A program made the translations under genes and the position numbers. Shown piece after piece: positions 533-21,856 of a stretch of DNA of 64,000 nucleotides. The first letter of the stretch is position 1. Every line of letters starts with the position of its first letter. The notes under the pieces were generated by a model that was given only the letters and a program-made list of their open reading frames with translations, was not told the DNA's origin and did not search any database. Source of the stretch: Kiritimatiellia bacterium (lineage in GTDB: Bacteria > Verrucomicrobiota > Kiritimatiellia > CAIQIC01 > Lenti-01); assembly GCA_017540905.1 (NCBI GenBank), contig JAFYAC010000029.1, forward strand, positions 14,171-78,170, read 5' to 3'.

Positions 533-533
533 T
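487..533 (+). repeat. attL (tRNA-Thr anticodon loop to CCA+1)
   Basis: ATTTGTAATCAGCAGGTCGTCGGTTCGAATCCGTCCGCCGGCTCCAT. It is repeated at 11545-11591 with a single difference (T520 versus A11578). Confidence 0.85.
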
Positions 534-655
534 TCTCTTCCGCTTGGAAGGGAGTGGGTTGTGGCACGCGGTGCCCGGTCCGGGGGGCGTGGGTGCCGGG
601 GGTTGGTGACGTTTTTGGTGACGAATTGCGCTTGCAATCGTCACCTTGGCGAACC

Positions 656-1852: not shown

Positions 1853-2018
1853 CGCCCGTGGGACCAGGGCAACCCCCGCACTTGCGAAAAACGGGGCGCG
1901 GGTCCCCTTCCCGCCAGCCCCCCCGAAAAATTTTCTTGTTTCGTTGACCTTGTAAAACCTTCGCGCACCTTGCGAAACTGCCGGACCTCGTTGGGCCGGG
2001 GAAATCCCTCTCCCTTTT

Positions 2019-2048
2019 TTGACAAGGGGAAAAAGTGTGCTTTATAGG
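2019..2048 (+). promoter_or_regulatory. putative sigma70-type promoter of the replication module
   Basis: TTGACA (2019-2024), a 17-18 nt spacer, then TTATAGG (2042-2048). It lies about 90 nt upstream of the ATG at 2135. Confidence 0.4.
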
Positions 2049-2134
2049 TAAGCCGCCCAAGCGAATTGTGCGGCTGACAAGTGGCAACGTCGCCAACACG
2101 GACGCGGCAACGCTGGGCATGAAAGGAAACCACA

Positions 2135-2479
2135 ATGCCCAAGACCGAAACCACGCCTCTTCTCGAAGCGGACAAGCCCCTGCGCGCTGCGCTCTACTCC
2201 ATGGCGGGCCAGTTGGCGGATGAGAAGATGAAAGCCGCCATCTGGCGCATCTTGGCGGGCGAGGACGCGCAGCCGAAACCGGCGCTCTCCGACCCTCCCC
2301 GGCAAGAAGTCTTGTCCGGGGCCGAAGCCGCCAAGATGCTCCGCGTGTCCCGCCGGACCATCACGAACCTTGCCCGAACCGGGGCCATCCAAGCCGCCAA
2401 GTTCCCCGGACGCATCCGCTCTTGCGGGTATGTCCGCGCCAGCATCGAATCCCTTCTTGCAACGAGGAAATCCCAATGA
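2135..2479 (+). CDS. AlpA/excisionase-family helix-turn-helix protein
   Basis: The C-terminal half reads LSGAEAAKMLRVSRRTITNLARTGAIQAAKFPGR, an HTH_17-like pattern. It is the first gene after the integrase, and its stop overlaps the next start (ATGA). Confidence 0.7.
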   Translation: MPKTETTPLLEADKPLRAALYSMAGQLADEKMKAAIWRILAGEDAQPKPALSDPPRQEVLSGAEAAKMLRVSRRTITNLARTGAIQAAKFPGRIRSCGYVRASIESLLATRKSQ

Positions 2480-3123
2480 GCGCCAGTCCAGAAAAAGAAA
2501 GCCGCCCTTTGGAGCAGGGCGGCGAGAAGTGGGATAGACCCGAACCCTCTTCTGCGGTGCACACTACCACGCCGCTTTTCCCCGTCAAGCCTCCCGCCGA
2601 CTTCAAGCCGCTCGCGCTGGAGTGGGCGGCGGCGGGCTTCCGCGTCATGCCGTGCGCCCCCTACAGTCACGCGCCACTGGTCCCCAGCGGCTTCGCGGCG
2701 GCGTCCTCCGATCCCGATCTCGTCCGCCTCTGGTGGAACATCTGGCCGGCTGCGAACGTCGCGGTTGCCACGGGGCGCGGCCTCGTCGGGCTTCGCCTCA
2801 ACAATCCTTTCGCCGCGACGTTGTTGAACCAAGCCGGTGCATCTCCGAAGTTCCTGCGGCGGCTCTCGTTCTCCTACCCAATCCGGCATCATGGGCGGGT
2901 GTACCTCTTCCGTTCGGATGCGCCGGTCACGTCGCGTCTGCGCGTCCTGCATCCGCGCTCGCACCTCCGCATCTTCGGGGAGGGGGACAGCCTGCTCGTT
3001 CCTCCTTCCCGACAGCACTCCTGGACATACTCGTTTCCGGGCCGAAAGCCGAAGGTGCCACCGCTGGCCTCGCTCGCGCCCTGGGCCATCATCGAACCCT
3101 ACTTGAACGGAGAATGCAAATGA
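2476..3123 (+). CDS. bifunctional primase-polymerase (PrimPol) domain protein
   Basis: ORF 2422..3123. The ATG at 2476 overlaps the upstream stop. The motif region WAAAGFRVMPCAPYSHAPLVPSGFAAASSDPDLVRLWWNIWPAANVAVATG is typical of the Prim-Pol N-terminal domain. Confidence 0.75.
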   Translation: MSASPEKESRPLEQGGEKWDRPEPSSAVHTTTPLFPVKPPADFKPLALEWAAAGFRVMPCAPYSHAPLVPSGFAAASSDPDLVRLWWNIWPAANVAVATGRGLVGLRLNNPFAATLLNQAGASPKFLRRLSFSYPIRHHGRVYLFRSDAPVTSRLRVLHPRSHLRIFGEGDSLLVPPSRQHSWTYSFPGRKPKVPPLASLAPWAIIEPYLNGECK

Positions 3124-4685
3124 CTACCCCCACTGACTGCGTACTTTCCTTCTTGGATGTCGTCGATTTCGAGAAAGACTTTCTCCTCGTTCTCGAAGCT
3201 CTTTACATCGGCTTTGGTGTTTCCGAAACTGGACTGCATGCCTATTGCCCATCTCATCTAATGCCACAACTGGACCAAGCCCTTACCTCCCTCAAGCGGA
3301 AATGCGAAGAGGAAAAACTTGAGCGTGGTACTTTTCTCCACGCTCCGGATGGACCGGTCCCTGCCGCTCTCGCTTGGCTCGAGAAACGACACGACGAAAC
3401 CGAGCTTGCTGTTCAAGATTCCGAAGTGAGCGCCGCGGAACAGACCGCCGAAGCCGCTGCCGTCCTCCGTGACGCTTCGCTGGCTTCTCCCCCAAAATCG
3501 CCCCGCGTCGAAACACCCTCCGCTGTTCCGCTCGACCTGCCCTCCGATCTCCTTCAGTTGTTGGAGTCGAATCCGGCAGAATTCATTGCCGATCTCGCCC
3601 AAGACCACAAAACCGGCAAACTCGACCTGCCGCCTTTCGTTGTCGAGGGAATGTTTCGTTGTGGCAAGTTGGTTATAGTGGCAGCGGATGGCGGTGTCGG
3701 CAAATCCTTCTTTGGTGACCAGCTCGCTATTTGTGTCGCCTCCGGCAAGCCCTTCCTGGGACGAAAAACCCGACAAATGCCCGCCCTCTATTTCGACTGC
3801 GAGATGGGCAACGCCTCCCAATTCCACCGCCTGGCCGCGCTTGCGTACCATCTTGGTGTTTCCCTTGACGATCTGCCGGTCATCCAGCGGAATGCCACCC
3901 CATTCCTGCGATATGTCACGCCCGAATATCTCGAGCGGATTTTGCTCTATGATTGCCACCGCCTCAACCTCAAACTGGGTGACTGCCTCGTGGTGTTTGA
4001 CAATCTCGCCGCGCTATCTTGTGGGGCCAATGAAAATTCCCTGCAGGATATGTCCCCCGTCATGCGTTGCCTGCGGGAAATCGTCGAGAAACACGGATGC
4101 CCCTGCGTTGTGTTCCATCACACAACCAAGGACGGCTACGACCCGCGCGGACATTCTTCCATCCGTGATTCGCTCGACGGCAATTTCCTCATCACCGGAA
4201 CGGGACCCACATGGTATTTCAAATGCGACAAGGGACGCGATATTTTCCAATTCCCAACGGAGGGTCTTGTCCGTGAATACATCCCCCGCCCCCGATTCCT
4301 GCGTTCTCGTGATGAGCTAGACACACAGCAATTTGCTGGTTTCGTTTGGAAGTCTACTGGACCCGTCAAGACGAAGTCGCCGGAGTCCGGCGACAAGCAC
4401 CAGCAGGGCATGAGCGCTGCCGAAGTCGAGCATTGCCGCGCCGTCGTGCGCTGCTTCCGCTCGCCCGACGAGAAAGTCCCGGCGACGGAACTTCGCGACC
4501 GCTACTGCAAGCTCGCCAAGGCGCAGGATCGCACCGCAAAAGCCGCCGTCAAGGATGCTGACACGCACCACTACACCAGCCGCCAAAAGGGCGGAGCGGA
4601 CGCGCGTGGTGTGCTCCGCACCCTCACTTCGAAGGGCCGCGGCGAGTGGCAAAAGCTCCACGGCACGACGGCGGAAGCGGAGTAG
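3120..4685 (+). CDS. AAA_25 / RepA-like (RecA-fold) replicative helicase-type ATPase
   Basis: Same frame as ORF 2622..4685. The ATG at 3120 overlaps the PrimPol stop (ATGA). Walker A reads VIVAADGGVGKSF, Walker B-like reads CLVVFDNLAAL, and HHTTKDG follows. Confidence 0.75.
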   Translation: MTTPTDCVLSFLDVVDFEKDFLLVLEALYIGFGVSETGLHAYCPSHLMPQLDQALTSLKRKCEEEKLERGTFLHAPDGPVPAALAWLEKRHDETELAVQDSEVSAAEQTAEAAAVLRDASLASPPKSPRVETPSAVPLDLPSDLLQLLESNPAEFIADLAQDHKTGKLDLPPFVVEGMFRCGKLVIVAADGGVGKSFFGDQLAICVASGKPFLGRKTRQMPALYFDCEMGNASQFHRLAALAYHLGVSLDDLPVIQRNATPFLRYVTPEYLERILLYDCHRLNLKLGDCLVVFDNLAALSCGANENSLQDMSPVMRCLREIVEKHGCPCVVFHHTTKDGYDPRGHSSIRDSLDGNFLITGTGPTWYFKCDKGRDIFQFPTEGLVREYIPRPRFLRSRDELDTQQFAGFVWKSTGPVKTKSPESGDKHQQGMSAAEVEHCRAVVRCFRSPDEKVPATELRDRYCKLAKAQDRTAKAAVKDADTHHYTSRQKGGADARGVLRTLTSKGRGEWQKLHGTTAEAE

Positions 4686-4722
4686 TCCGCGCCGCCGTCG
4701 GCCCCCACAATCCAGTCTCCCC

Positions 4723-4748
4723 CAATCCCCGGTCCCCGCCGGGGATTG
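4723..4748 (+). terminator. GC hairpin after the helicase gene (no U tract)
   Basis: CAATCCCCGG-tccccg-CCGGGGATTG, 38 nt after the stop at 4685. Confidence 0.3.
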
Positions 4749-4752
4749 GTGC

Positions 4753-5091
4753 ATAGGTGCAAAAGGTGCAATTTCTGCATCCTTGCACCTTTCGCGCCCG
4801 CGCCAGTATTGGCTTTTCCTTGCGATAGGTGCAAAAGGTGCAAGCCCGCGCCCGCCCGCGCGCTCAAAAAAAAACTTCTTCAAACCCCAGGACTTCGAGG
4901 GCGGTGGGAGGAGGTGTCTCCCCCCCGCCGCGGGGGAGGGGGAGGAGGGGCCCCCCTCCCCCCCCCGGGGGGGAGACGATAACCTCCTACCACCTCCCGG
5001 TCCTCGGGGTCCTGGGAAAGGGAAAAAATAGGTGCAACCCCTCCCCCTTATAGTTGCACCTTTTGCACCTTTGCACCTATCGGTCTTTCGG
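4753..5091. repeat. iteron cluster / putative replication origin of the element
   Basis: ATAGGTGCAAAAGGTGCAA occurs at 4753-4771 and 4825-4843. ATAGGTGCAA occurs at 5039-5048. The inverted set TTGCACCTTTTGCACCTTTGCACCTAT is at 5065-5091. An A9 tract (4866-4874) and a G/C-homopolymer palindrome (4908-4988) lie between the sets. Confidence 0.55.
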
Positions 5092-5188
5092 GACCGCGAA
5101 CGGGGCGGCGTTGGTCGCTGCCGGACGCGGGCGTCGGCGGTGGTCCTCCTGGACCTCCGCGCGCCCGGTCGGGCAGGGGTGGCGGTCG

Positions 5189-5518
5189 TTAGGCCCGGTC
5201 CGCGTCCGCGCCGTAGCCGGGGCGCTTCTTGGGGATGTACCCGGAAAGGATGTCCTTGAATGCGCGGGCGCGGGCGATGGCCGGCGGGTAGCCGACGGCG
5301 GCGAGGGCCGCGGCCAAAACGTTGCGGTCCTCCTTCGCCCATTCGTCGTACTCCTGGCGCAAGTCCAAAAGCCAGCCCTCGGGCGTGCTCTTGTGCAACG
5401 ACATGTCCCACCAGACAATGCACGCGACGTGCGCGCGAATCTGGCGGGGAAACTCGAGGGCGCGCACCTGCGCCTCCCACTTCTCAAACGGTGCTTTTCT
5501 CCATTTCGGCGTCGGCAT
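5189..5518 (-). CDS. hypothetical protein (109 aa)
   Basis: ORF with ordinary amino-acid composition (MPTPKWRKAPFEKWEAQVRALEF...WAKEDRNVLAAALAAVGYPP). I recognise no motif. Confidence 0.55.
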   Translation of the reverse strand: MPTPKWRKAPFEKWEAQVRALEFPRQIRAHVACIVWWDMSLHKSTPEGWLLDLRQEYDEWAKEDRNVLAAALAAVGYPPAIARARAFKDILSGYIPKKRPGYGADADRA

Positions 5519-5586
5519 GATACCCTTCTACACCAAGCCGGGCGGCGGCGCAAGCTCGCCGTTCCGGCGGCTGGCACGATCTGGGC

Positions 5587-5614
5587 TTGACGGCCCGGTG
5601 CGCTCTGGTAGAGT
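5587..5614 (+). promoter_or_regulatory. putative promoter for the 5750 gene
   Basis: TTGACG (5587-5592), a 16-nt spacer, then TAGAGT (5609-5614). It lies in the divergent intergenic region. Confidence 0.3.
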
Positions 5615-5749
5615 GCGCCCGTTCGCCGCTTTTGCGGTGGGCCGTCGAGATAGAAGCCGACGCCAACAGAAAACCACTTTGCCCGTTTGTCATGTGCCGG
5701 GGCTCTCGCCTCGCTTCTATCGCATGACTGACGGGTTTTTGGTGAGTAC

Positions 5750-6187
5750 ATGAAAAAGCAGAATGCGAAACAGGACACGGACGCGGCGGTGGTCGCGGAA
5801 CTTCAAAGCCATGACTGGAACGACACCCCTCGGGCATACTCGAAGCGGCTCCAGCAGTTGGCGCGGGACGAAGGAAAGCGCCTCTGGGAAGAGCGCGAAA
5901 CGTGGGGCGCGGGATGCAAGGGGTTTCTCGACTTCATGCATGCAGGGGAAAAACTGTTTCTTGACGGCCCCTACAACACCCATGACATCAAAGCCGCCTC
6001 CGGCCTCGCCCGCTCCCTCGCTTCGCGCCTCGCGAATGTTCCGCCCGAACTTGCGGACGAAGTTCGCAAGGCGGCGCGGCGTCTGGATGCCTTGGCCAAC
6101 CTCTGCACCCTGTACGTGTTCGGCGTCCGGGAATCCCTGGGCAAGCAACAGGACAAGGCACTCGACGCCGGGAAGATTCCCGTCTGA
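5750..6187 (+). CDS. hypothetical protein (145 aa)
   Basis: ORF MKKQNAKQDTDAAVVAELQSHDWNDTPRAYSKRLQQLARDEGKRLWEERE... The composition is protein-like. I recognise no motif. Confidence 0.6.
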   Translation: MKKQNAKQDTDAAVVAELQSHDWNDTPRAYSKRLQQLARDEGKRLWEERETWGAGCKGFLDFMHAGEKLFLDGPYNTHDIKAASGLARSLASRLANVPPELADEVRKAARRLDALANLCTLYVFGVRESLGKQQDKALDAGKIPV

Positions 6188-6358
6188 CGCTCCGGCTCCT
6201 CCTTGCCCTCATCTGCCCTCTCCCGCTGGCCGGGAGGGGGCTTTCTGTTGTCGGACGGCTCGTTGCCGGGGTCGCGGTCTCCGGCGCGTCTCCGGCCAAC
6301 GTCGGCGGAATGCGGGGCCTCGGCGCAGTCCACTATCACTCTGGGATTTTCAGGACTT

Positions 6359-7282
6359 TTACTTCCACCAGTCTTTGACGTCCTGCGCAGCAAACCACGA
6401 CTGCTCGCGATCCTTGGGAAGCGGCTCGCCGTGAATGATTTCGTAGGCCCTCCGGGCGTAGGCCTCGTTGGCCTTGCGCTCCTTGTGCTTCGCGATTTCG
6501 CTCCGGGTCATGTCTTGGGCAATGTAGCCGTGCGCCACTCCCTTCCCCTCCAGCAATCCACGCGCCGCCCAGCTCATTTCCTTCCCCGTGGCTGCCGGGG
6601 CCTTCGCCACCGCGGTCGCGACTTCCCGCGCCCGGACCAGTTCCTGCACCGCCGCCGCCTGTTCCTCCTTGCACCGCAAAAGCAGGGCCTGTTTCTCCAT
6701 GCTCTTCTTGAACGCGGCTTCCTCTGCTTTGCGGGCGGCTTCTTTTTGGGCCAGCGTCTGGGCGGTCATGCGCCGCACTCTGGCTTTCTCCCATTCCCGG
6801 ACCGCCACCTCCGCCGCCTCGTTCCTCGCCTTGTACTCCGCGCCTTTCTTCGCCACTTCCCGCTCGGCTTCCGACAGCACCCCTTTTGCCCATGTCTGTT
6901 CTGCGGTCGCCCTCGCGGCACCCTTCGTGGCTCCCTTCGCGGCGGTCTTGCCTCCCGCGCCAGCCCCACCTATGGCAAACGATGCGGCCATCACGCCAAG
7001 CTCGGCGGCAATCTTCGACACCTTGGAATCCCATCCCGTCTGCTGGTAGGTGTGGGTCATGCCCACCATGTCGCTCAAGCCGAATGTCGCGGAATTGAAG
7101 ATGTTCGCAATCCCCGCCACCGCGCCCTCCTTGAAGCCGTCCCAGGCGCCTTTCAGAACTTCCGATGTCGAAACCGGCTCCGGCTTGTAGGGGTTCCGGG
7201 CTGCGGCGGCGGCGTTTCCGCCGTTCATGCGCGCGAACATCGCGCGGCGTTGTTCTTCGGTCATGGTTTGCGTGGTTGGCAT
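6359..7282 (-). CDS. hypothetical protein with Gly/Ala-rich hydrophobic segment and long charged helical region (307 aa)
   Basis: ORF MPTTQTMTEEQRRAMFARMNGG...IAAELGVMAASFAIGGAGAGGK...EAEREVAKKGAEYKARNEAAEVAVREWEKARVRR... An AGGAGA-type RBS precedes the ATG. Confidence 0.65.
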   Translation of the reverse strand: MPTTQTMTEEQRRAMFARMNGGNAAAAARNPYKPEPVSTSEVLKGAWDGFKEGAVAGIANIFNSATFGLSDMVGMTHTYQQTGWDSKVSKIAAELGVMAASFAIGGAGAGGKTAAKGATKGAARATAEQTWAKGVLSEAEREVAKKGAEYKARNEAAEVAVREWEKARVRRMTAQTLAQKEAARKAEEAAFKKSMEKQALLLRCKEEQAAAVQELVRAREVATAVAKAPAATGKEMSWAARGLLEGKGVAHGYIAQDMTRSEIAKHKERKANEAYARRAYEIIHGEPLPKDREQSWFAAQDVKDWWK

Positions 7283-7308
7283 GGTCGTTCTCCTTGGCTT
7301 TGCTGCCT

Positions 7309-7337
7309 TGACTACGCGCGTTCTCGCGAGGTGTCAA
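7309..7337 (-). promoter_or_regulatory. putative promoter of the 307-aa gene
   Basis: On the minus strand: TTGACA (7337-7332), a 17-nt spacer, then TAGTCA (7314-7309). Confidence 0.3.
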
Positions 7338-7339
7338 AT

Positions 7340-9339
7340 TTGGGCGTATCGCCCCCATTAGCCGCATGGGATTTGTTGGTTTTCGCCTCGGCCGGTTCGC
7401 GCCGCAGTCCCCCCACGGGGGACGGCCCCGCAGGGGCGGCGGACAGCAGGGGGGCATGGGTGCACAAGCCGCATAGTCCCCCCGACGGGGGACGGTGCGC
7501 GCAGCGCAATGCGGAAAGGGGGCCCGCGAAGGCAACGGAGGAGGGCGGCGACGGAAGGGGAGGACCTAGGAGCGCCAGCGACGACGGGCCGATTCCGTCG
7601 ACGTTCTCCGGGAGGTGCCGACCATTCGAGACCCGGCTTTGCGGGGCGAGCGGGCCGGGGTCGGGCGCCCTGTAGGGCCAGCAGCATCCCCCCATCAAAC
7701 CGACGCTCTCCACGGATGGGGGGGTGGTGATGGCCCGGAAGGTGAAGCGGTGAGAATGCGCCCGCCTGTGTCCCCCCTGCCCTCTCTCCCCCTGCCGGAC
7801 GCCGCATCGAAGAGGGGTTTGGGAGGAAGGGGGTCGGAGGGGGAGGGAGGGAAGGGGGGAAACAGGTTTGCCCCGGCCCATCAATCGAAACGAATCCACC
7901 GCATTCCCGACCGACGGAAGCCGGTTGAAGAGGAAACCGGCGCGTCCGGCGGTCGGCGTGCCACCTGCACGCGGGGACGTTGCCGTCGAGGTCTTGTCTG
8001 GCTCCGCCGCGCGTTCTTGGTGGCACGCAAAGGGTGGTGAGTTTGGGGGATGGTGGGCGGGTGCCTTGTTTACCGGTCCAAGCACGGGAGGGGCGGCGAC
8101 GTGCCGGACGGGGGGGCTTGGTCCGGCGTGGAGCCGCCCCGTCGCCGGTCGGCGGACCGCCTTGGGAGTCTGGTGCCCTTGTGGTGCCAGTCTACCAGGG
8201 CGAGGACGCCGGACGGCGGGAAACGGAACGGCGGAACGATGAGTCGCCCGGAGTGAAGGTCGGACGGGAGCGGAGCGCCGTGGGCGGGAACACCTGGACC
8301 GCCGCCGGCGGCGAAGCGGACGGGAGACCGCAACGGAGCGGAGAGTCTTCGTGGAGCCGCACCGCATCGGGGGGGCAGGGTGTCGGGGCGGCAGCCATGA
8401 GGGAGGCGGGTGGGCGCTTCTCGGCCGATCCTGCGGGCCGGCGGAGGCGCGTAGCGGTGGAGCCGTCCCGCGTGTCGGCCGTCGGTCGCGCCCGATCCGC
8501 GCGCGGCGCGTGTCGGGCGTGGAAATTGGGGGGACGGCCGGAGCGGGAATCCGTTGGCGGGACGCCGACGGATCCAGAGCGGAGGACGTAGCCTTGCGGG
8601 GGGGGTGGGGGTATCGGGGGCAAGCCCCCGTGCCGCGGGGTTCAAGGGGGCGCGTAGCCCCCTCGGCGGGGGGAAAGGGGCGCGCAGCCCCTGGGCGGGG
8701 GCTCCGGGGCGCGTAGCCCCGAAAGCAGGGGCGGGGGCGCAGCCCCGAAGCCGCAGGGGCTAGGGGCGTCAGCCCCAGTCGGGGGGAGAGGGGGCGTGCC
8801 CCCCTTGCCGGGGGGTAAGGGGCGCGTAGCCCCAGCCTGCCGCCGCGCGCAGCGCGTTCGCGGCTGCGAGGGGGCGAGGGGGCGAAGGCCCCCCGTGGGA
8901 AGCGTGGGAAGGGCGCCAGCCCGCGTCCCACGCGCCGCAAGCCGGGAGGGCGGCAGGGCGTCGGCCCGCGTCCGCCCGTCGCCGCGTGAGCGGCGGGAAA
9001 GGGGTGAGCGCCCGCCCCCTGCGGAGCGCCAGCGACAAGGGGGGCCGGAGGGACGCGCAAGCGGCCCGGAGTGGGGCGCGGTCGCCTTTGGGGGGGCGGG
9101 GGTACGGGGGCTGTGCCCCTGTAGTACGGAGACGGGAGGGGGGGTGCGCCCGCCCCCAGAGGAGCGCCAGCGACGAAGGGGGTCGAGCCGACGCGCCAGC
9201 GGCGGCGAAGTGGGGCGCAATCCGCTTTTGCCTCCCTCGGGGACGCGGAGCGTGGGGAAGGGGTGTGGGGGAACGGGCGGAGGGGGTTCCCCCACAAGTG
9301 GCAGGGGCGGGCCGGTCGTGGCCCGTCCCTGCTCTGTTC
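7340..9339. other. ~2-kb ORF-poor, G-skewed (plus strand), hairpin- and repeat-rich segment
   Basis: Every ORF in all six frames translates to R/G/P/A-rich low-complexity text. The segment contains dense GGGG..CCCC hairpins, G-run tracts (for example 7813-7859) and internal repeats. Confidence 0.5.
8616..8893 (+). repeat. degenerate ~29-nt tandem array of GGGGC-N4-5-GCCCC hairpins (9 units)
   Basis: Hairpins start at 8616, 8646, 8677, 8706, 8734, 8763, 8790, 8819 and 8878. The consensus is GGGGCGCGTAGCCCC. Confidence 0.6.
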
Positions 9340-9723
9340 TCAATCGCCCCACTCGACGGGGACGGCATCGTCGACGCCTCGGGTGAGGCTGCGCAAGTCC
9401 ACCTCGGCACGCCAAACCCGCACCCAAAACCCTACAAGCTCGCCAAAGCGCACCCCGCCCTTTTCGGTGCTGTGCTCGCGCTCGGTCTCGATGGCGTAGG
9501 CCTCCGCTTGCGAGGGCCATTCGCACCTGCACTTGTCGGGGTTCGCCCGTGGCCCTCCCTTGTGGGAGTAGTCCGGCGTTCTGTCGGCGTTCATGTAGTA
9601 GGCGCGGCAATCAACGTAGAGATTCGGCCCGCGGGCCTTGTCTCGGAGGAATCGCGCCAGTTCTTCACGGGTCAACAGGCGGTCCGGGTCGGTGACTGCT
9701 TCGAGGGTCATGTAGATTTTCAT
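9340..9723 (-). CDS. hypothetical protein (127 aa), third gene of the PRTase operon
   Basis: ORF MKIYMTLEAVTDPDRLLTREELARFLRDKARGPNLYVDCRAYYMNADRTPDYSHKGG... A GAGGAGG RBS precedes the start. It begins 12 nt after the upstream gene. Confidence 0.6.
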   Translation of the reverse strand: MKIYMTLEAVTDPDRLLTREELARFLRDKARGPNLYVDCRAYYMNADRTPDYSHKGGPRANPDKCRCEWPSQAEAYAIETEREHSTEKGGVRFGELVGFWVRVWRAEVDLRSLTRGVDDAVPVEWGD

Positions 9724-9735
9724 CGGTGGGCCTCC

Positions 9736-10020
9736 TCAAGAAATGATGCCGTCGGCGTAGAACGCCCCGCGCGAGCCTGCAACCGTCGCGGCCTCCATCA
9801 CGCGCGCGAACGTCGCCAGGACGAAAGCAAAAGCCTTGTCTTCGCAGTAGCCCAGGGCGGCGACCTCTTCGAGCGTGGTCTTTTCGGTGATGTCCCCATC
9901 TGCCACCCCAGCCTCCAGCCAAAGGCTAAAATCGTCCTCGTCATTGACGCATCGGGCGACCAGTTCCATAGCCTTAACAAGGCGGGCGCGGCGTTCGGTT
10001 TTCTCGTTCATCGTGGTCAT
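9736..10020 (-). CDS. hypothetical acidic protein (94 aa), second gene of the PRTase operon
   Basis: Internal ATG of ORF 9736..10203, giving MTTMNEKTERRARLVKAMELVARCVNDEDDFSLWLEAGVADGDITEK... The part of the ORF upstream of this ATG is P-rich and not protein-like. Confidence 0.55.
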   Translation of the reverse strand: MTTMNEKTERRARLVKAMELVARCVNDEDDFSLWLEAGVADGDITEKTTLEEVAALGYCEDKAFAFVLATFARVMEAATVAGSRGAFYADGIIS

Positions 10021-10054
10021 GGTGTCGTGTCCTTTCTGCCGGGGGTCCGGCGGT

Positions 10055-10876
10055 TCATTTTTCAAACAGGGGGAGGGCCGCGGTGGCTTCCACGTCCAAG
10101 TCCGGGAGCAGTCGCGCGGGGGTGTTGGTGGTGTTGGCGAGGGCCAGCAGGGCCGCACCGGGAAGCGCTTCGAGGGCGGCGCTTGCGGTGGCGCCCGTGT
10201 CAATGACGTTATCGAGGATGACGGTGGGGCGGTCCGTCGGCGGTGTGCGGATGGCGCGCATGGAGATTCGGGCGGGCTTCTGGCCGCGCTTCTTCTGGGT
10301 GTAGTTCGCTTCGTGGGGATTGGAGCGGAGCGCGTCTAGGACTTCGGCATCTGGCGCGAGGGCGGCGATGGCGTCCGCGAGTGCCCGGATGGTCGTGGGG
10401 TAGCCGTGGCGGGACGGCATGGGGACAATGACGGCACGGCGCGGAAGCAGGGGCGCGAGGCGGCGGGCGCTCTCCTCAATCGCCGCGAGCGCACCGCTCT
10501 TGACTTCGCGGGCGAGGTTCCGGAGGACTCCTTCGTAGCTGCCAAGCGTGCGCACCTGGGCGGGCCGGGCCGGACCGGCGGGGCGCGGCGCGTCGTTGTC
10601 GGCCGGTCTGCACCAGGCTTGCCGTCCGTTGTTCCATCGGTAGCCGTTCGCGGCGAGCATGGCGCGGTGTGGGTAGGTCGCGCCCCATACCCACACAAAA
10701 CCCTCCGCCACCTTCGAGCGGACGCCGGGAAGGGTTTCCACGCCGTCAAGGGCGGGCGTTTTTCGGATAGCTTTTGTGGGTCTCGCCCCTCTCTTCATCT
10801 GCGAGACTTCGAGCGTCCGGGGGGCGGCATTCTGGGGGAGAAAGCAAATGGACAAGGTGGTTTCGGTAGGGTTCAT
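10055..10876 (-). CDS. ComF-like phosphoribosyltransferase-domain protein with an N-terminal small W/Y-rich domain
   Basis: Internal ATG of ORF 10055..11119 (MNPTETT) with the RBS ACAGGAGAACC. The PRT motif reads PTVILDNVIDTGATASAALEAL, preceded by PMPSRHG...ANYTQKKRGQKPARISMRAI, as in ComF-type proteins. The N-terminal region reads FVWVWGATYPHRAMLAANGYRWNNGRQAWC. Confidence 0.65.
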   Translation of the reverse strand: MNPTETTLSICFLPQNAAPRTLEVSQMKRGARPTKAIRKTPALDGVETLPGVRSKVAEGFVWVWGATYPHRAMLAANGYRWNNGRQAWCRPADNDAPRPAGPARPAQVRTLGSYEGVLRNLAREVKSGALAAIEESARRLAPLLPRRAVIVPMPSRHGYPTTIRALADAIAALAPDAEVLDALRSNPHEANYTQKKRGQKPARISMRAIRTPPTDRPTVILDNVIDTGATASAALEALPGAALLALANTTNTPARLLPDLDVEATAALPLFEK

Positions 10877-10939
10877 GTAGGTTCTCCTGTTTTTTTCGGT
10901 AGCCTTTGTTGGGGTGGCTCGTTGCCCTCTCTTCACCCG
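10856..10939. repeat. left arm of ~80-bp imperfect inverted repeat (covers 5' UTR, RBS and first 7 codons of the PRTase gene)
   Basis: The reverse complement aligns to 11197-11271 at about 80% identity. The shared core is AAAAACAGGAGAACC-NNN-ATG-RACCC. Confidence 0.7.
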
Positions 10940-11196
10940 AACAGGCGTGCCGGTCCCGATCCCCTGGCCGGGGTCCCCTCGGGGTGGCCAAAGGGGTTCG
11001 GGATGATTTTCGGAAAGCTCAACTGGGGGGGAAAGGGGATGCCCCGCCCCCTGCGGAGAGACAAGGGGGGTCGAGCGTAGCGAGTGGGGCGCTTGCGCCC
11101 GCCCCCTGCGGAACGACAAGGGGGGTTGAGCCGCCCCGCGGCGAAGTGGGGGCGTCCCCCCGTCGGAGACCCTTACTTTCCGAAAATCAAGGTAGC

Positions 11197-11271
11197 CGGG
11201 TGGAGAGAGGGCAATGGGCCACCCCCGCCACCAAAAACAGGAGAACCGAAATGGACCCGGACGGAACCACC
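11197..11271. repeat. right arm of the inverted repeat, facing attR
   Basis: CGGGTGGAGAGAGGGCAATGGGCCACCCC..AAAAACAGGAGAACCGAAATGGACCC..GGAACCACC. An inner 13-bp perfect inverted repeat is also present: GATTTTCGGAAAG at 11005-11017 and CTTTCCGAAAATC at 11176-11188. Confidence 0.7.
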
Positions 11272-11544
11272 CCGCCGCATTCCCCCAGAATGCCGTCCCC
11301 CGGACGCGATACCTTATTGGGCTGGCACGATTCCGGCACGGGTTGGCACGATTCCACCGCGGGCGCTCCGGACGCTCCCTCGCTTGGTGACGTTTGGTGA
11401 CGCCTCAAGGTGTGAAAAGGTGCCAAAAGGTGCCTTTTCGGCCTCTCCCGCGGAACTTGCGATTTCCGCCAAAAACTACGCAAGCGCGCTCTCTGCAAGG
11501 AGTAGCGCGCTTGTCCCCTCCACCCCCTTTCCCCCGTTCATGTC

Positions 11545-11591
11545 ATTTGTAATCAGCAGGTCGTCGGTTCGAATCCGACCGCCGGCTCCAT
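11545..11591 (+). repeat. attR (displaced 3' part of tRNA-Thr)
   Basis: 46/47 identical to 487-533. There is no 5' half, so this is not a functional tRNA gene. Confidence 0.85.
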
Positions 11592-11617
11592 CATTTTTCG
11601 GGCGCCTTCCCGCCTCC

Positions 11618-13090
11618 CTACTCCCATCGCGACACCGGCCGCGGGTCGTACGCCGCCCGCAGTCCCTCCCCGACGAACACGCCCGCGAGCATCACCGCGA
11701 ACAGCGCCAGCGCCGGATACAGCGCCAGCCACCACGCCCACGGGAACTCCTGCGCCTGCGCCAGCAGCTCGCCCCAGCTCGGCGACGGCGGCGGCAGTCC
11801 GAAGCCCAGGTAGTCCAGCGCCGCCATCGACCCGATCGCCCCCACCAGCTGGAACGGGAAGAACGTCACCAGCGGCACCAGCGCGTTCGGCAGGATGTGG
11901 CGGAACACGATCTTCGGTCCCGACAGCCCGAGCCCCTGCGCCGCCTCCACGAACGGCTGTTTCCGCAGCCGCAAGAACTCGGCCCGCATGTAGTGCGAAA
12001 TCCCCACCCAGTTGAACAGCGCGTACACCCCCAGCAGCAGCCCGAACCCCTGCCCGTACACGCTCCCCAGCAGAATCAGCACGTACAAGAACGGCAGCGA
12101 CTCCCAAATCTCGATCACCCGCTGCCCCACCAGATCCACCGCCCCCGCGCAATACCCCTGCACCGCCCCCGCGAGCGTCCCGAGCCCCATCGTCGCGACC
12201 ACCAGCAGCAGCCCGAACGACAGCGACGTCCGCAGCGCGTACAGCATCCGCGCCGCCACGTCCCGCCCCGACGAATCCAGCCCCAGCGGATGCCCCTTCA
12301 CCGGCCGCATCGGGAACCGAACCTCCTCCCGCGACTCCCGGTGCGTCCATCCCGGCGTGCCCGGCGGCGGGAACCCCTCCGGCCACACCGGATTTTCCAC
12401 ATCATCCACCACCGCCTTCAGCGTCCCCCCCGCCACCGGCGCCTCCCGCCACGTCACCCGCACCCGCGACGGCGCCGCCCCGCGCGGCTCGTACGGCGAA
12501 AGCGCGACCGTCCGCCCCCCCTCCACCGCCCCCTCGACGGCCCCCGCCGCCTTGTCCGCCCGCCGCGCCGCCAGCCCCTCCCGCACCGCATCCGGCAGCG
12601 CCGCCTCGTCCACGACTCCGCCCCGTGCCAGCCCGAACCGCTCCGCCTCCCCGCCGACGCGCACGATCCGCCCCTCCCCGTCGATTTCCGCATACGCCGC
12701 ATGCTCCTCCGGAACCGCCACCACCGTCTTGACCTTCGGCAGCTCGATCGACCCCGCCGGAACGCTCTCCAGCGGCCCCCACCGCAGCAGAGGCCACACC
12801 ACCACCGCCCCCTCGAACGCCCCCGCCTTCTCCAGCGCCCGCCAATCCGGCCGCGTCATCCGCCCGCTCCCGTTGAATGCATCCTCCGGATAGAACTTCA
12901 CCACCGGCCAATAACACTTCCCCCCCATCCGCACGAACAGCGGCCTGTCGTTCGCGATCCACTCCGAAAACAGACTCACCCCATACCCCGCCACCAGCAC
13001 CCAGAACGCCCACCACGCCCGCCGCATCCCCCGAAACCTCGCCCACCGCCGCTTGGTGATCGGGTGAAGCCTCATATTGATTCTCCGCAT
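11618..13090 (-). CDS. yejE: ABC transporter permease, YejE-like (Opp/Dpp-type inner-membrane component) with enlarged periplasmic loop
   Basis: ATG at 13090 within ORF 11618..13687. The N-terminus FVRMGGKCYWPVVKFYPEDAFNG resembles YejE. The C-terminal BPD_transp_1 region reads SHYMRAEFLRLRKQPFVEAAQGLGLSGPKIVFRHILPNAL. Confidence 0.8.
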   Translation of the reverse strand: MRRINMRLHPITKRRWARFRGMRRAWWAFWVLVAGYGVSLFSEWIANDRPLFVRMGGKCYWPVVKFYPEDAFNGSGRMTRPDWRALEKAGAFEGAVVVWPLLRWGPLESVPAGSIELPKVKTVVAVPEEHAAYAEIDGEGRIVRVGGEAERFGLARGGVVDEAALPDAVREGLAARRADKAAGAVEGAVEGGRTVALSPYEPRGAAPSRVRVTWREAPVAGGTLKAVVDDVENPVWPEGFPPPGTPGWTHRESREEVRFPMRPVKGHPLGLDSSGRDVAARMLYALRTSLSFGLLLVVATMGLGTLAGAVQGYCAGAVDLVGQRVIEIWESLPFLYVLILLGSVYGQGFGLLLGVYALFNWVGISHYMRAEFLRLRKQPFVEAAQGLGLSGPKIVFRHILPNALVPLVTFFPFQLVGAIGSMAALDYLGFGLPPPSPSWGELLAQAQEFPWAWWLALYPALALFAVMLAGVFVGEGLRAAYDPRPVSRWE

Positions 13091-13101
13091 CTTTTCACTT
13101 T

Positions 13102-13587
13102 TCACTTTTCTCTGTTCTCTATCCGTCGTTGCCGGAAGAACCCCTTCAGCACCGCCGCGCACTCCCCCTCCAGCACGCCCGGCAGCACCTCCGCGCGGTG
13201 GTTCAGTTCCGGCGTCTGCAAAATCTTGAACCGCGACACCGCCCCGCCCCTGAGCGGATCGCTCACCCCCCACACCACGAGCGGAATCCGCGCCAGCACG
13301 ATCGCCCCCGCGCACATCGGACACGGCTCCTTCGTCACGTACAGGATGTGCCCCTCCAGCCGCCAATCCCCCGCCGCCGACGCCGCCTGCGTGATGGCCA
13401 GCACCTCCGCATGCGCCGTCGGGTCCTTCAGCGTCCGCGTCTGGTTCCACGCCTTCCCCACCAACTGCCCCGCCGCGTCGTAAATCACCGCACCGACCGG
13501 CACCTCCCCCTCCTCCGCGGCCCGCCGCGCCTGCCCCAGCGCCAGCCGCATCCGCTGCTCGTGCAGGAACCGGAACTCCTCCCCCAT
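13102..13587 (-). CDS. tadA: tRNA adenosine(34) deaminase
   Basis: ATG at 13587 within ORF 13102..13755. The deaminase zinc motifs are HAEVLAI ... PCPMCAGAI. The upstream part of the ORF is just a translation of the palindromic repeats. Confidence 0.85.
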   Translation of the reverse strand: MGEEFRFLHEQRMRLALGQARRAAEEGEVPVGAVIYDAAGQLVGKAWNQTRTLKDPTAHAEVLAITQAASAAGDWRLEGHILYVTKEPCPMCAGAIVLARIPLVVWGVSDPLRGGAVSRFKILQTPELNHRAEVLPGVLEGECAAVLKGFFRQRRIENREK

Positions 13588-13635
13588 CGCATCCGCCAGC
13601 CACCCGTTCACGCCGCCCTCCTTCCGCCATCGAAG

Positions 13636-13698
13636 TTTTCCAACCATTGGAAAAAAAGTTTCCAACCATTGGAAAAAATTTTTCCAATCATTGGAAAA
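13636..13698. repeat. tandem array (3 copies) of the AT-rich palindrome TTTTCCAA(C/T)CATTGGAAAA
   Basis: Copies start at 13636, 13659 and 13679. The same family is present at 38021-38146. Confidence 0.8.
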
Positions 13699-13720
13699 CT
13701 TTTCCGCCGCCAGTCCCACT

Positions 13721-13763
13721 CGATTCCATCGAAAGAATCGATTTTTTCGATACAATCGAAATT
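13721..13763. repeat. TCGA-rich palindromic repeat (core TCGATTTTTTCGA)
   Basis: CGATTCCATCGAAAGAATCGATTTTTTCGATACAATCGAAATTC. A related copy is at 33881-33921. Confidence 0.6.
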
Positions 13764-13867
13764 CATCCTTGTCCCCCTTTGTCCTGTTTGTCTTTCGAAA
13801 AATCCGTTTCCTTCAAAAGTTGTGCCGAGTTGTTTTTCCAAGTTGTCAAAATTGTCGTTCTGGATTT

Positions 13868-14581
13868 TCAATTTTGTCCATCTTGCAAATTTGTTTCTTG
13901 TTTTGTTTCTTTTGTTTCCCCCTTTTCCACCCTCACCACCCTGAACCCCACGTCCCTCCCCCTGTACCCCGCCGGGAACGCCTGCCGCTTCTCCACCCGC
14001 AGCGACGCCGCATCCGGCTCCGACCACGCCCCGCCGCGCGCCTCGTCCCCGTCCGCGACCCACTCGAACACGTTTCCCGCCATGTCGCGCAGCCCGTACC
14101 CGTTCGCCGGATACATCCCCGTCCGCGGCGCCGGCGCCAACGCATCCACGCACGCCATCTTACGCGGCTCCCCGCCCCATCCCCACGGCCACGGCGCCCC
14201 GCGCACGCCGCCGCGCGCCGCCCACTCCCACTCCGCCGACGTCGGGAGCCGCACCGTCCGCCCCTCCCGCTTCCCGAGCCACGCCGCATACCCCTCCGCC
14301 TCCGCGCGCGACACCTCCGATACCGCCGCCCGCCGCGACACCCCGCGCCGCACCTGCCACTTTCCGTCCTCCCCCCGCTCCAGCTGCGCCGTCTCCGCGA
14401 ACCCCGCCGCACCGCCGTCGTTCAGCCACTCCGCGAACTCCCCCGCCGTCACCTCGCACCGCCCGAACTCCAGCGCCGCCCCGTCCCCGCCCGGCACCGG
14501 CGGCACCCCGCGCCACGCCCCCCCGCAGCCGCCGCACAACAGCGCCAGCGCCACCAGCGCACCTGACCATTGATCGCCCAT
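13868..14581 (-). CDS. formylglycine-generating enzyme (SUMF1/FGE-sulfatase) family lipoprotein
   Basis: ATG at 14581 gives MGDQWSGALVALALLCGGC, which carries a lipobox. RLPTSAEWEWAARGG ... GLRDMAGNVFEWV is typical of the FGE-sulfatase domain. Confidence 0.8.
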   Translation of the reverse strand: MGDQWSGALVALALLCGGCGGAWRGVPPVPGGDGAALEFGRCEVTAGEFAEWLNDGGAAGFAETAQLERGEDGKWQVRRGVSRRAAVSEVSRAEAEGYAAWLGKREGRTVRLPTSAEWEWAARGGVRGAPWPWGWGGEPRKMACVDALAPAPRTGMYPANGYGLRDMAGNVFEWVADGDEARGGAWSEPDAASLRVEKRQAFPAGYRGRDVGFRVVRVEKGETKETKQETNLQDGQN

Positions 14582-14702
14582 GCCTCGTCCACTCGTCGTT
14601 TCGTTGTCTCGTCGTCCTCCAACCATTCAACCGCATCCGGCTTTGACAATCCAGCGGAAATTCGCATAATGGCCGCCGAACCATCCAACCAAGGATCGAC
14701 CG

Positions 14703-15641
14703 ATGACCGCGAAAAAATCCAAGTGCTGTGGCAACCACGCCAAACTCCCCCTGACCGTCCTGCTGGGCATCGCCCTGGCCGCGGCCGCGGGCTTCGCCTC
14801 CCGCGCCGAACTCGCGTGCGCCGACTGGGCCGCGCTCGCCGCCATCGGCATCGCCGCCGCCCACTTCATCCTCTCCGCGGCCGACGCCATCCGCATCTGC
14901 CTCGCCGTCAAGTCCGGTCCCCTTCCCGACGGCTTCGAGCCCGCCGACCGCGCCGTCGCCGCCGAGCGCGCCGCCGCCCTCGCCGGACGCACCCCTCTCC
15001 ACGCCCGCCTCCGCCATCTCCTGACCGCGTGGGGCTCCGGCGCCACCGGACCGCAGGTCACCGCCATGGCCTCCGCCCAGAACGTGCGCGCCCAGACCGT
15101 CCTCGCCGCCGAGACCGCCGGCATCGTCGCCCTCGCCCTGATCTCCTCCGGCTTCGGCCCCGACCAGGGACTCCTCCAGGCCGGCACCGCGGTCGCCGCC
15201 CTGAACCTCCTCCTCGGCATCGTCCGCTTCCAGCAGACCGCCTGCATCGCCGGCTACATCGAAGGCCGCCTGCTCGCCCGCATCGGCAACGACACCCCGG
15301 CCGCGGCCGCCGCCGACTTCGCCAAGGCCGCCAAGGAAGCCGCCTCCGCCTCCGCCGACACCCTCGCCGCCGCGCAGGAAAAAGCCTCCGCCCGCCTCGC
15401 GCAGGCGCAGGACGCCATCGCCAAGCAGCTCGACCGCATCGCGGGCCTCGCCTCCACCATCGACCAGACCCTGCAGCTCCAGAAGTCCGTCGACGGCACC
15501 CTCAAGGGCGTCACCGCCGCCGAAGAATTCAAGTCCACCCTCCTCGAACTCAAGCGCCATCTCGCCGACTCCGACCAACTCCTCAAGAACGCCGCGCGTC
15601 CCCGCACCCTGCGCCTCGTCGAGAACCCCGGCGAAGACTGA
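14703..15641 (+). CDS. hypothetical membrane protein with C-terminal Ala/Gln-rich coiled coil
   Basis: ORF with several hydrophobic segments (LPLTVLLGIALAAAAGF, WAALAAIGIAAAHFIL, AETAGIVALALISSGF) followed by AAQEKASARLAQAQDAIAKQLDRIAGL. Confidence 0.6.
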   Translation: MTAKKSKCCGNHAKLPLTVLLGIALAAAAGFASRAELACADWAALAAIGIAAAHFILSAADAIRICLAVKSGPLPDGFEPADRAVAAERAAALAGRTPLHARLRHLLTAWGSGATGPQVTAMASAQNVRAQTVLAAETAGIVALALISSGFGPDQGLLQAGTAVAALNLLLGIVRFQQTACIAGYIEGRLLARIGNDTPAAAAADFAKAAKEAASASADTLAAAQEKASARLAQAQDAIAKQLDRIAGLASTIDQTLQLQKSVDGTLKGVTAAEEFKSTLLELKRHLADSDQLLKNAARPRTLRLVENPGED

Positions 15642-15651
15642 TTCCCTTCCC

Positions 15652-16449
15652 ATGGAAGCCCCTTCCCACCCGGCGGCGGAGCCCACTCCGCCGCCGTTTG
15701 TTTCCCCCGCCAAGCCCCTAGGTTCTCTAGGTTCTCTAGACAATCTAGGATCTCTAGACCATCCAGAGCCCTTGCCCCCCGGCCTCTACCTCGTCGGCAC
15801 CCCCATCGGCAACCTCGAAGACATCACCCTGCGCGCCCTCCGCGTCCTGCGCACGGCCACCTGCATCCTGGCCGAAGACACCCGCCACACCCGCCCGCTC
15901 CTCGACCGCTACGCCATCCACACCCCGCTCCTCTCCCTCCACAAATGGAACGAGCGCGCCCGCGAGTCCGAAATCCTCGCCCGCATCCAATCCGGCCAAT
16001 CCCTGGCGCTCGTCACCGACGCCGGGATGCCCGGCATCTCCGATCCCGGCGCCCGTACCGCCGCCGCCGTGCGCGACGCGGGGCTGCCCGTGACCGTCAT
16101 CCCCGGCCCGAGCGCCGTCACCTCCGCCATCGCCCTCTGCGGATGCAGCAGCACCCCGGCCTTCCGCTTCGAAGGCTTCCTCGACCACAAGACCGCGACC
16201 CGCCGCCGCCGTCTCCGCGAACTCGCGGACGAACCCTGCCCCATCGTCTTCTACGAATCCACCCACCGCATCCTGAAACTCCTCGACGAAGTCGAAGAAG
16301 AGCTCGGGCCCGGCCGCCGCCTTTTCATCGCCCGCGAACTCACGAAGAAATTCGAAGAAACCCTCCTCGCCCCTCCCCCCGCCCTCCTCGCCCACTACAA
16401 AACCCACTCCCTCAAGGGCGAATTCACCGTCATCCTCCTCCCCGCCTGA
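15652..16449 (+). CDS. rsmI: 16S rRNA (cytidine1402-2'-O)-methyltransferase
   Basis: LYLVGTPIGNLEDITLRALRVLRTATCILAEDTRHTRPLL...VTDAGMPGISDPG. The true start may be the TTG at 15772, because the first 40 codons include a 9-nt CTAG tandem repeat. Confidence 0.85.
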   Translation: MEAPSHPAAEPTPPPFVSPAKPLGSLGSLDNLGSLDHPEPLPPGLYLVGTPIGNLEDITLRALRVLRTATCILAEDTRHTRPLLDRYAIHTPLLSLHKWNERARESEILARIQSGQSLALVTDAGMPGISDPGARTAAAVRDAGLPVTVIPGPSAVTSAIALCGCSSTPAFRFEGFLDHKTATRRRRLRELADEPCPIVFYESTHRILKLLDEVEEELGPGRRLFIARELTKKFEETLLAPPPALLAHYKTHSLKGEFTVILLPA

Positions 16450-16482
16450 CGCACAGCGCCCACCTCCCCCACCCCGCCGCCC

Positions 16483-18012: not shown

Positions 18013-18040
18013 CCGTCCCGCGCGCGGCCGTATCCGTTTT

Positions 18041-21836: not shown

Positions 21837-21856
21837 GATGGCCTCCCCCCGCCCCC

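Follow-up and report, generated by a model that had tools for sequence, protein, structure and literature searches.

A conserved G-rich non-coding arm in satellite-like elements of rumen Kiritimatiellae is a candidate large structured RNA of a new class

The DNA analyzed here (hereafter, the window) comprises 64,000 nucleotides of a Kiritimatiellia bacterium contig (assembly GCA_017540905.1, JAFYAC010000029.1, positions 14,171 to 78,170 of the forward strand) and contains an integrative, satellite-like element of 11.06 kb (487-11577, + strand), integrated at tRNA-Thr. The element is bounded by a 33-nt exact direct repeat (487-519 and 11545-11577), which derives from the 3' part of tRNA-Thr, and includes a non-coding arm of 2.06 kb, amounting to 18% of its length, close to the fifth that a preliminary description of this DNA had assigned to it. 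We consider it somewhat more probable than not (roughly 55%) that the segment from about 7390 to about 9330 is a gene, or a gene cluster, for a new large, G-rich, structured non-coding RNA read from the + strand, and the best explanation of the data is that such an RNA would be carried by a small family of integrative, satellite-like elements, 10-11 kb in size, from rumen Kiritimatiellae. The gene order of the element, with genes assigned through Pfam and PHROG matches, is as follows.

457-532: tRNA-Thr gene
554-1852: tyrosine integrase gene (int)
Between int and the Prim-Pol gene: HTH_17 excisionase-like gene
2622-4685: Prim-Pol and AAA_25 helicase
Minus strand: small orphan gene of 109 aa
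5750-6187, plus strand: small orphan gene of 145 aa
6359-7282, minus strand: orphan gene of 307 aa
7283-9339: non-coding arm, between the 307-aa gene and the PRTase cassette
9340-10876, minus strand: PRTase cargo cassette, consisting of a 127-aa gene, a 94-aa gene, and a ComF-like PRTase gene

The preliminary description had characterized the arm as about 2 kb of G-skewed, hairpin-dense DNA poor in open reading frames (ORFs), and all of the features it listed were recovered at, or near, the positions it had given. Between 7501 and 9500, the G+C content is 0.69-0.79 and the GC skew is +0.15 to +0.23, with a skew of -0.3 to -0.4 in the adjoining chromosome. The + strand of the arm consists of 44.9% G, 30.0% C, 13.9% A, and 11.1% T, and carries 2.9 potential G-quadruplex motifs per kb, with none on the - strand. 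Folding of the 7300-9300 region yielded minimum free energy (MFE) z-scores, relative to dinucleotide shuffles, of mostly -1.2 to -2.5 (-0.65 and -0.18 in two intervals), compared with about 0 to +1.6 for the flanking genes.

Long ORFs are present in all three minus-strand frames of the arm (7312-9297, 7358-8026, 8070-8645, 8192-8623, 8642-9610, and 8769-9410), and one of them, a 661-aa ORF rich in R, G, P, and A, has been annotated by automatic gene callers in several assemblies, as would be expected if the arm encoded a low-complexity protein. However, the three frames are open simultaneously, and the G+C content at the three codon positions (GC1/2/3) is flat in the longest, 676-codon open frame (0.74/0.73/0.75, as against 0.62/0.51/0.78 in the neighboring 307-aa gene). 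None of 11 arm ORFs had a match in Pfam, and the 661-aa ORF, which the preliminary description had named as a possible conserved protein that would overturn its view, has no homologue among 5.8 billion protein clusters. Furthermore, the frame is kept neither in length nor in phase among related elements: the corresponding ORF spans 661 aa in the window and 234, 378, and 289 aa in the relatives L011, L018, and L019, respectively, and indels between the arms of relatives are mostly not multiples of 3. The protein-coding reading was rejected on the grounds of ORF layout, codon-position G+C, and the Pfam and homologue searches, and retains a negligible probability. The arm is non-coding, in agreement with the earlier statement that no frame here is protein-like.

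Relatives of the element were gathered from members of 90%-identity clusters and their contigs, as well as with a DNA pattern of the U unit, a repeat module of the arm described below. The set includes L011 (ENA, integrated at tRNA-Lys), L018, L019, and L023 (Logan), L021 (Logan, with a different replication module), L024 and L026 (short contigs), and L017 (JGI), the most distant one, and represents five related rumen-metagenome lineages besides that of the window, with differing tRNA targets and replication modules. All relatives encode a homologue of the 145-aa protein (46-92% identity) and the conserved N terminus of the 307-aa protein, and a G-rich non-coding arm is present in each of them; therefore, the alternative contemplated in the preliminary description, namely, that related elements lack the segment and it represents a generic repeat, does not apply. 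The location of the arm, between the 307-aa-type gene block and attR, is constant in the window and the five related lineages. The relatives, none of which contains the PRTase cassette, have arms of 1.2-1.5 kb, and the G content is 37-45% in the four arms measured (window, L011, L018, and L017).

A sliding comparison of whole elements delineated a conserved island in the arm. Positions 11909-12682 of L011 are 92-96% identical to L018 and L021 (except for one 200-nt bin at 81% against L021), compared with 83-94% for the integrase gene, 52-86% for the left-hand genes, and 62-86% for the right-hand DNA. Thus, the L011-type core of about 0.8 kb is conserved at or above the level of the integrase gene, and more strongly than the adjacent genes. 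In L026, the region of the adjacent genes is about 76-77% identical overall to L011 and L018, and the arm hardly varies over its first ~220 nt. The window arm matches that of L011 in six collinear blocks of 72-93% identity, totaling about 450 nt, and in a 3' module (8944-9228); the insertions between the shared blocks are private to each lineage. The arm of the window has the following layout, 5' to 3'.

7283-7393: leader/promoter region of the divergent 307-aa gene, with a segment of about 50 nt in common with L021 only
7337-7332 (TTGACA) and 7314-7309 (TAGTCA), minus strand, 17-nt spacer: candidate promoter of the 307-aa gene, recognized by eye and not called by the consensus scan
7394-7455, plus strand: block 1, the conserved 5' block, with putative hairpins GTCCCCCC-AC-GGGGGAC and GGCCCC-GCA-GGGG
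7409-7425 and 7479-7495, plus strand: paired hairpins CCCCCC(G)ACGGGGGACGG
7473-7495, plus strand: second copy of the block 1 hairpin, in the window lineage only
7524-7570, plus strand: block 2, ending in GGGAGGACCTAGG, 74% identical to L011
7751-7875, plus strand: block 3, a long hairpin of 34 pairs, the pyrimidine-rich 5' arm of which pairs with the G/A-rich tract 7814-7871
7906-7957, plus strand: block 4, a stem-loop of 17 pairs with the conserved apical loop RAAGAGGA
7958-8135, plus strand: window-lineage expansion, not found in L011-type elements
8136-8239, plus strand: block 5, a conserved extended helix, GGTCGGCGGACCG ... CGAGGACGCCGGACG, 76-77% identical to L011, L018, L021, and L023
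8347-8380, plus strand: block 6, GGAGCCGCACCGCAT and a G-run, 93% identical to L011 and L018
8616-8893, plus strand: degenerate tandem array of about nine GGGGC-loop-GCCCC hairpins with a period of 26-29 nt
8907-8928 and 8952-8973, plus strand: two GGGCG-loop-CGCCC hairpins, followed by the hairpin CCCGTCGCCGC-GTGA-GCGGCGGG with a GNRA loop (segment 8907-8997)
9004-9083, plus strand: unit U1, a three-helix module of about 70 nt (86.6 bits)
9142-9223, plus strand: unit U2 (76.9 bits)
9267-9293: terminal hairpin GGGGGAAC...GGTTCCCCC, read by eye
9304-9329: terminal hairpin GGGGCGGGCC-GGTCGT-GGCCCGTCCC (10 bp), then TGCTCTGTTCTC, read by eye
11037-11158, plus strand: units U3 and U4 (51.4 and 35.1 bits), beyond the PRTase cassette and in the same orientation

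The leader block 7283-7393 is conserved in L011, L018, and L021. Block 1 is 90-92% identical to L011, L018, L023, and L024, and, within longer alignments, 86% identical to L021 and 80% to L026; the paired hairpins, previously placed at 7407-7423 and 7476-7493, lie 2 to 3 nt further downstream. The motif GGGAGGACCTAGG heads a hairpin in L011 and L017. The G-run tract at 7829-7859, already noted in the preliminary description, corresponds to the 3' arm of the block 3 hairpin. In place of the 7958-8135 expansion, L011-type elements hold 243 nt between blocks 3 and 4, and 14-mers related to block 6 are found at 8128, 8351, and 8457.

The 29-nt periodic array that had been described at 8616-8893 is present; what did not stand is its regularity, given that it is degenerate and its period varies between 26 and 29 nt (TRF reports a period of 29 over 8635-8720 and of 26 over 8705-8776). 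The array unit consists of a 15-nt hairpin and a G-rich linker of about 14 nt; the linkers are similar to one another, the copies are 66-83% identical, and GGGGCGCGTAGCCCC occurs in four copies at no more than one mismatch, all in the array and nowhere else in the 64 kb. The array is absent from all relatives, including L011, L017, and L018, and its copy number is variable: in a near-identical strain from run X12, the array is shorter by 190 nt (8601-8790 missing), and many assemblies break there. The array and the other inter-block segments are lineage-specific expansions. As for the 70-nt units, originally located at 9008-9219, repeat comparison delimits them as 8996-9065 and 9134-9203, with two more copies at 11037-11158. 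Unit U1 contains helices P1 (GCGCCC/GGGCGC), P2 (CCCCC/GGGGG, with a purine-rich GGAGCG loop), and P3 (a variable hairpin), and there are four copies of the U unit in the window, two in L011, and two in L017. The hairpins of segment 8907-8997 are conserved in L011 and L017, and partly in L018. In L017, an AT-rich insert of about 280 nt interrupts the arm midway (3950-4230, minus strand) and could be a promoter island or a small insertion.

The structure of the core was predicted with RNAalifold from a 901-column alignment of L011, L018, and L021. The consensus fold comprises 292 pairs, with 98% of the cells paired, compared with 44-49% when the partners were slid. In this fold, 23 pairs are changed on both sides with pairing preserved, as opposed to 8.1 +/- 2.2 in shuffles (none of the 500 reached 23) and 2-5 with slid partners; 50 of the 77 variable paired columns have a varying partner, and a long-range swap of GGG/CCC for AAA/TTT links columns 796-798 with columns 860-862. 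Because the core structure was predicted from the same alignment, two 900-nt stretches of the integrase gene from the same three elements, with 102-119 variable columns, were processed identically as a control and produced 3-8 double-change pairs and 8-18 co-varying columns, compared with 21 and 46, respectively, for the core.

Three further tests employed alignments of the window with relatives and are independent of the core. In the block 3 hairpin (7751-7875, four sequences), 97% of the cells of the 34 pairs are paired, compared with 49-65% with slid partners, 12 pairs are changed on both sides (matched by 0 of 500 shuffles), and one G.U pair is kept in all four sequences. The block 4 stem-loop (7906-7957) is 98.5% paired, with six compensatory double changes and an invariant RAAGAGGA loop, and in its 7-bp apical stem, the four pairs that differ from L011 are all compensated. 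Among eight copies of the U unit from three lineages, 92.8% of the cells are paired, with six double-change pairs. The fold of block 5 includes another five double-change pairs. The base-pairing of the arm is under selection.

These results bear on the possibility that the arm is a non-functional spacer, colonized by GC-rich hairpin repeats of the host (REP- or MITE-like) or filled with decayed genes, the conservation of which stems from recent recombination between elements. Such recombination does occur, as the elements from runs X11 and X12 are mosaics, with 99.5% identity to the window right of 7381 and about 87% left of it (the differences inside the arm are too few to inform on structure), and the large lineage-specific insertions and deletions would also fit a spacer. 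However, in each of two independent comparisons, the DNA to the left and to the right of the conservation island is more diverged than the island itself, compensatory changes are 3-5 times more common than in the coding control, and further copies of the modules are absent from the remaining 52 kb of the window and from the flanks of the relatives, where blastn searches with the arm returned no significant match. The arm shares with REP, BIME, and MITE sequences the GC-rich imperfect palindromes arranged in arrays, but in the DNA searched its modules are confined to the element and its relatives, and all of them share a single strand and orientation. The option of decayed genes overrun by repeats, one of the three roles raised in the preliminary description, finds no support and was rejected, given the same position in six lineages, the conserved core, the compensatory changes, and the lack of a match elsewhere in the window. 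Overall, we regard a functionless spacer as improbable.

Searches for known families and for further copies point in the same direction. In Rfam 15, searched with cmscan as the preliminary description had recommended, no family matched the arm: in the window, L011, L017, L018, and L021, only tRNAs reached the threshold, and at E<=10 the sole additional hits were long hairpins that resemble miRNA precursors, far below threshold, with no ROOL, GOLLD, OLE, HEARO, group I/II intron, 6S, tmRNA, or ribozyme. The covariance model of the U unit retrieved only the eight known copies, with none further in the window; the U pattern had 0 matches in genomes of 185,579 species (one each) and a single match in the JGI metagenomes, which is the relative L017; and three further core patterns had 0 matches in IMG/VR. 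One IMG/VR match to the block 1 hairpin (L016) was dismissed as a chance occurrence inside a replication-protein ORF of a contig with 52% G+C. By these searches, the arm matches no known RNA family and has no copies outside the element in the DNA searched, which speaks against a generic repeat.

Several specific identities were considered for the repeat modules and rejected. A CRISPR array requires identical repeats of 23-50 nt with unique spacers similar in length, whereas here the linkers are alike and the copies are 66-83% identical. The RNA arrays of type III toxin-antitoxin systems, such as ToxI and AntiQ, are encoded on mobile DNA and contain tandem direct repeats, each about 30-40 nt, that fold as RNA, which the 26-29-nt array might resemble; however, there is no ToxN/AbiQ-family ORF or Pfam match beside 8616-8893 on either strand, and the array is degenerate, partly deleted in a near-identical strain, and absent in relatives. 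For the U units, integron attC sites, which have inverted R''/L''...L'/R' core sites with a GTTRRRY consensus and depend on an integron integrase, were discarded, the U consensus being GCGCCCGCCCCCTGCGGA...AAGTGGGGCGC, with no GTTRRRY, and the sole recombinase of the element being a phage-type integrase that targets tRNA genes.

The modularity of the arm raises the possibility that, rather than one large RNA, it holds a series of small elements that act independently (small RNAs, transcription terminators or insulators, and hairpins that bind protein) and together shield the genes of the element from read-through at the attR end. Consistent with this view, the modules have independent fates, with U units in three lineages but not in the L018 type and the array in the window lineage only; a pair of hairpins (9267-9329) separates convergent genes; and most of the supported helices are local. 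Conversely, the consensus fold contains helices that span 60-570 columns, one of them covarying (columns 787-800 with 858-871), and the core of about 0.8 kb is a single continuous island of conservation, which terminators or insulators would not need. We therefore see this alternative as unlikely, albeit marginally less so than a spacer.

If the arm acts as a folded molecule, the strand and the chemistry come into question. The consensus core folds to -503.6 kcal/mol on the + strand and to -438.4 kcal/mol on the - strand. At pairs that are Watson-Crick in another sequence, G.U and A.C variants occur in a ratio of 24:3 on the + fold and 8:8 on the - fold, and GNRA-type CGCAAG words are enriched in all four lineages. 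Taken together, the strand and G.U/GNRA results modestly favor an RNA from the + strand. When folding is restricted to Watson-Crick pairs, the + strand ratio is 8:4. A similar count from Watson-Crick-only folds of single sequences also favors the + strand but was not relied upon, given that a skewed chromosomal control behaved alike.

The principal competitor of the RNA interpretation, unlikely in our assessment but ahead of the other alternatives, is that the arm is a cis-acting DNA, either folded as a single strand or bound by protein as a duplex, such as a packaging signal for a helper phage (pac/cos with accessory sites), an origin of transfer or of the lagging strand, or a hotspot at which cargo cassettes recombine. 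The element has the gene complement of PICI- and P4-like phage satellites, that is, an integrase, an AlpA-type (HTH_17) regulator/excisionase, its own primase-helicase replicon, and a small size without virion genes, and no terminase, capsid, or cos-like sequence was identified in it. Phage satellites with PICI and P4 layouts commonly keep packaging functions at the attR-proximal end, which is where the arm is located.

In four relatives, the arm is additionally adjoined by a small gene of 106-128 aa with the invariant motif GRFxxGNPGGPAGRKCGR, situated between the 307-aa-type gene and the arm (L011 11533-11868, minus; L018 8147-8533, minus; L021 8203-8523, minus; L017 about 4557-4910, plus). 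All four members weakly match DUF5681, a phage family in Pfam (best E 0.0011), with no match in PHROG or PDB. On either side of the PRTase cassette lies a pair of U units, all four sharing one orientation (9004-9223 and 11037-11158); the cassette has no counterpart in L011, L017, and L018, and is partly replaced in run X11, where 9329-10017 are swapped for another sequence, so that this region looks like a cargo hotspot. A packaging or recombination role may apply above all to these 3' units, which are also close to attR. Further in line with a DNA site, the elements encode Prim-Pol and a helicase and assemble as circles, as follows from the 30-nt terminal overlaps (k-1) of the Logan contigs of the window element (L003, corresponding to window 490-11577) and of the L018-type element, and from L019, which comes from a different sample and is circularly permuted (arm, then att, then int). 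These assemblies suggest excised episomal copies that would outnumber the chromosomal junctions.

Nevertheless, known pac, cos, oriT, and sso sites measure tens to a few hundred bases, far less than 0.9-2 kb of covarying helices. In particular, the arm is 5-20 times longer than known pac/cos sites, and recognition of duplex DNA does not require covariation. Neither a relaxase nor an HUH Rep gene is present, the DUF5681-like gene is missing from the window element, and the conserved G.U positions and GNRA loops fit RNA better. Among the three roles initially put forward, a large structured RNA is the one best supported by the covariation.

Several observations weigh against a + strand RNA. Hairpins of folded single-stranded DNA would also select for compensatory changes, the excess of G.U over A.C is seen in the skewed chromosomal control as well, and the MFE z-scores are similar on both strands. 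The covariation counts lean toward structure owing to the prediction of the core from the alignment on which it was tested, and the covariation sets consist of 3-8 sequences from only about five lineages, three of them close. The window version retains only about 450 nt of the L011-type core, without the 243 nt that are 94-95% conserved there, and the U units are lacking in L018, L019, and L023. The consensus scan called neither a + strand promoter nor a clean intrinsic terminator, including at 9267-9329. Finally, no usable RNA run holding the arm turned up, and runs X16, X20, and X21, of unspecified type, cover the element at low depth. In run X20, the 11.3-kb element is matched by one contig only, 252 nt of the arm (7871-8122), identical to the window at a depth of 2, which is too little to interpret.

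Under the favored reading, that of a + strand RNA, the transcript would start shortly upstream of 7394 and end near 9330, where the 3' end may be formed by the hairpin 9304-9329 together with TGCTCTGTTCTC, opposite the stop codon of the convergent 127-aa gene. The RNA would consist of a 5' core of conserved helices (blocks 1-6), broken up by lineage-specific expansion hairpins, and a modular 3' part made up of the hairpin array, the GGGCG hairpins, and the 70-nt U units. We infer that the active form is RNA and not folded single-stranded DNA, with the + strand as the functional one.

As to function, a multivalent scaffold or decoy is the weakest and most speculative step of this scheme, and we put it forward only tentatively, because near-identical hairpin modules vary in copy number and carry purine-rich loops (GGAGCG, RAAGAGGA, and GNRA). 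A multivalent RNA of this kind would bind many copies of a protein of the host, the helper phage, or the element, or would self-assemble, during the excised, replicating phase. In this respect, the arm is reminiscent of CsrB and RsmX-Y-Z RNAs, which have many similar stem-loops in numbers that vary among relatives, with purine-rich, GGA-containing loops, a likeness that suggests multivalent binding of one protein. However, the arm loops do not follow the A(N)GGA consensus, GGA is not conserved in one of them, and there is no family match; the one hit to RsmY, on the opposite strand and outside the arm, covers 24 nt that resemble a terminator.

A closer parallel is offered by ROOL and GOLLD, large (>0.5 kb), intricately structured non-coding RNAs that are encoded on prophages and other mobile DNA, often by tRNA genes; ROOL was first seen in rumen metagenomes, and both were recognized by covariation instead of protein homology, their function being unknown (PMC5737381, PMC12286853). 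The arm is similarly large, structured, non-coding, located on mobile DNA that is integrated at a tRNA gene, and recognized by covariation. It differs in being longer (up to about 2 kb), far more G-rich, and partly built of tandem and dispersed repeat modules, in having no match to these families by cmscan at E<=10, and in residing on a 10-11-kb integrase and Prim-Pol element of Kiritimatiellae. By extension, the arm might represent a new class of ornate RNA, about 1-2 kb long with 45% G, that is the main payload of a minimal satellite family and whose expandable arrays, built of identical stem-loops, assemble with many protein copies or with themselves, similar to ROOL and GOLLD cages, after excision, for example, capturing a factor of the helper phage or the host; this is a doubtful proposal, with odds akin to those of the scaffold or decoy function.

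Large structured bacterial RNAs of unassigned function are rare, being represented by OLE, GOLLD, ROOL, raiA, and few others, and each new class opened new biology. The arm is a credible candidate for another such class, drawn from a small set of metagenomic relatives. It is unusually long and G-rich, and is carried by a tiny mobile element that has almost no annotatable genes and comes from an uncultured rumen phylum. If the product is an RNA, the arm may constitute the very purpose of the element, which would then provide a compact system for studying such RNAs; if it is folded DNA, the arm would be exceptionally large for a cis site of packaging or transfer. Either outcome would account for the 12-18% non-coding share of an element of 10-11 kb.

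An identical element is present in many ruminant gut metagenomes, with DNA runs X1-X10 containing it in full, the DNA searched has no similarity to deposited phages or plasmids, and protein searches with the 307-aa protein, the helicase, and the 145-aa protein recovered almost no relatives. The 145-aa orphan protein (window 5750-6187, plus; L011 10001-10435, plus) is 92% identical between these two elements despite their differing integrase targets (tRNA-Thr vs. tRNA-Lys) and replication genes, and has no homologue beyond this element family in 5.8 billion clusters. Beside attR, direct repeats of the GGCACGATTCC type are found in two to three copies (window 11323-11352; L011 13152-13182; L017 3053-3103, minus), are 93-97% conserved across all lineages, and are likely arm-type integrase or excisionase sites. 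Just outside attR of L011 (13669-20435) lie defense-type genes encoding an N6_N4 methylase, an AAA_15/SMC-like ATPase, a D12 methylase, and a ResIII helicase. In the window, the chromosome at 11600-30000 and 52000-64000 has a GC skew of -0.15 to -0.44 on the + strand, independent of gene orientation (e.g., 11618-13687 on the minus strand and 16450-18012 on the plus strand), and the element's own genes show almost none.

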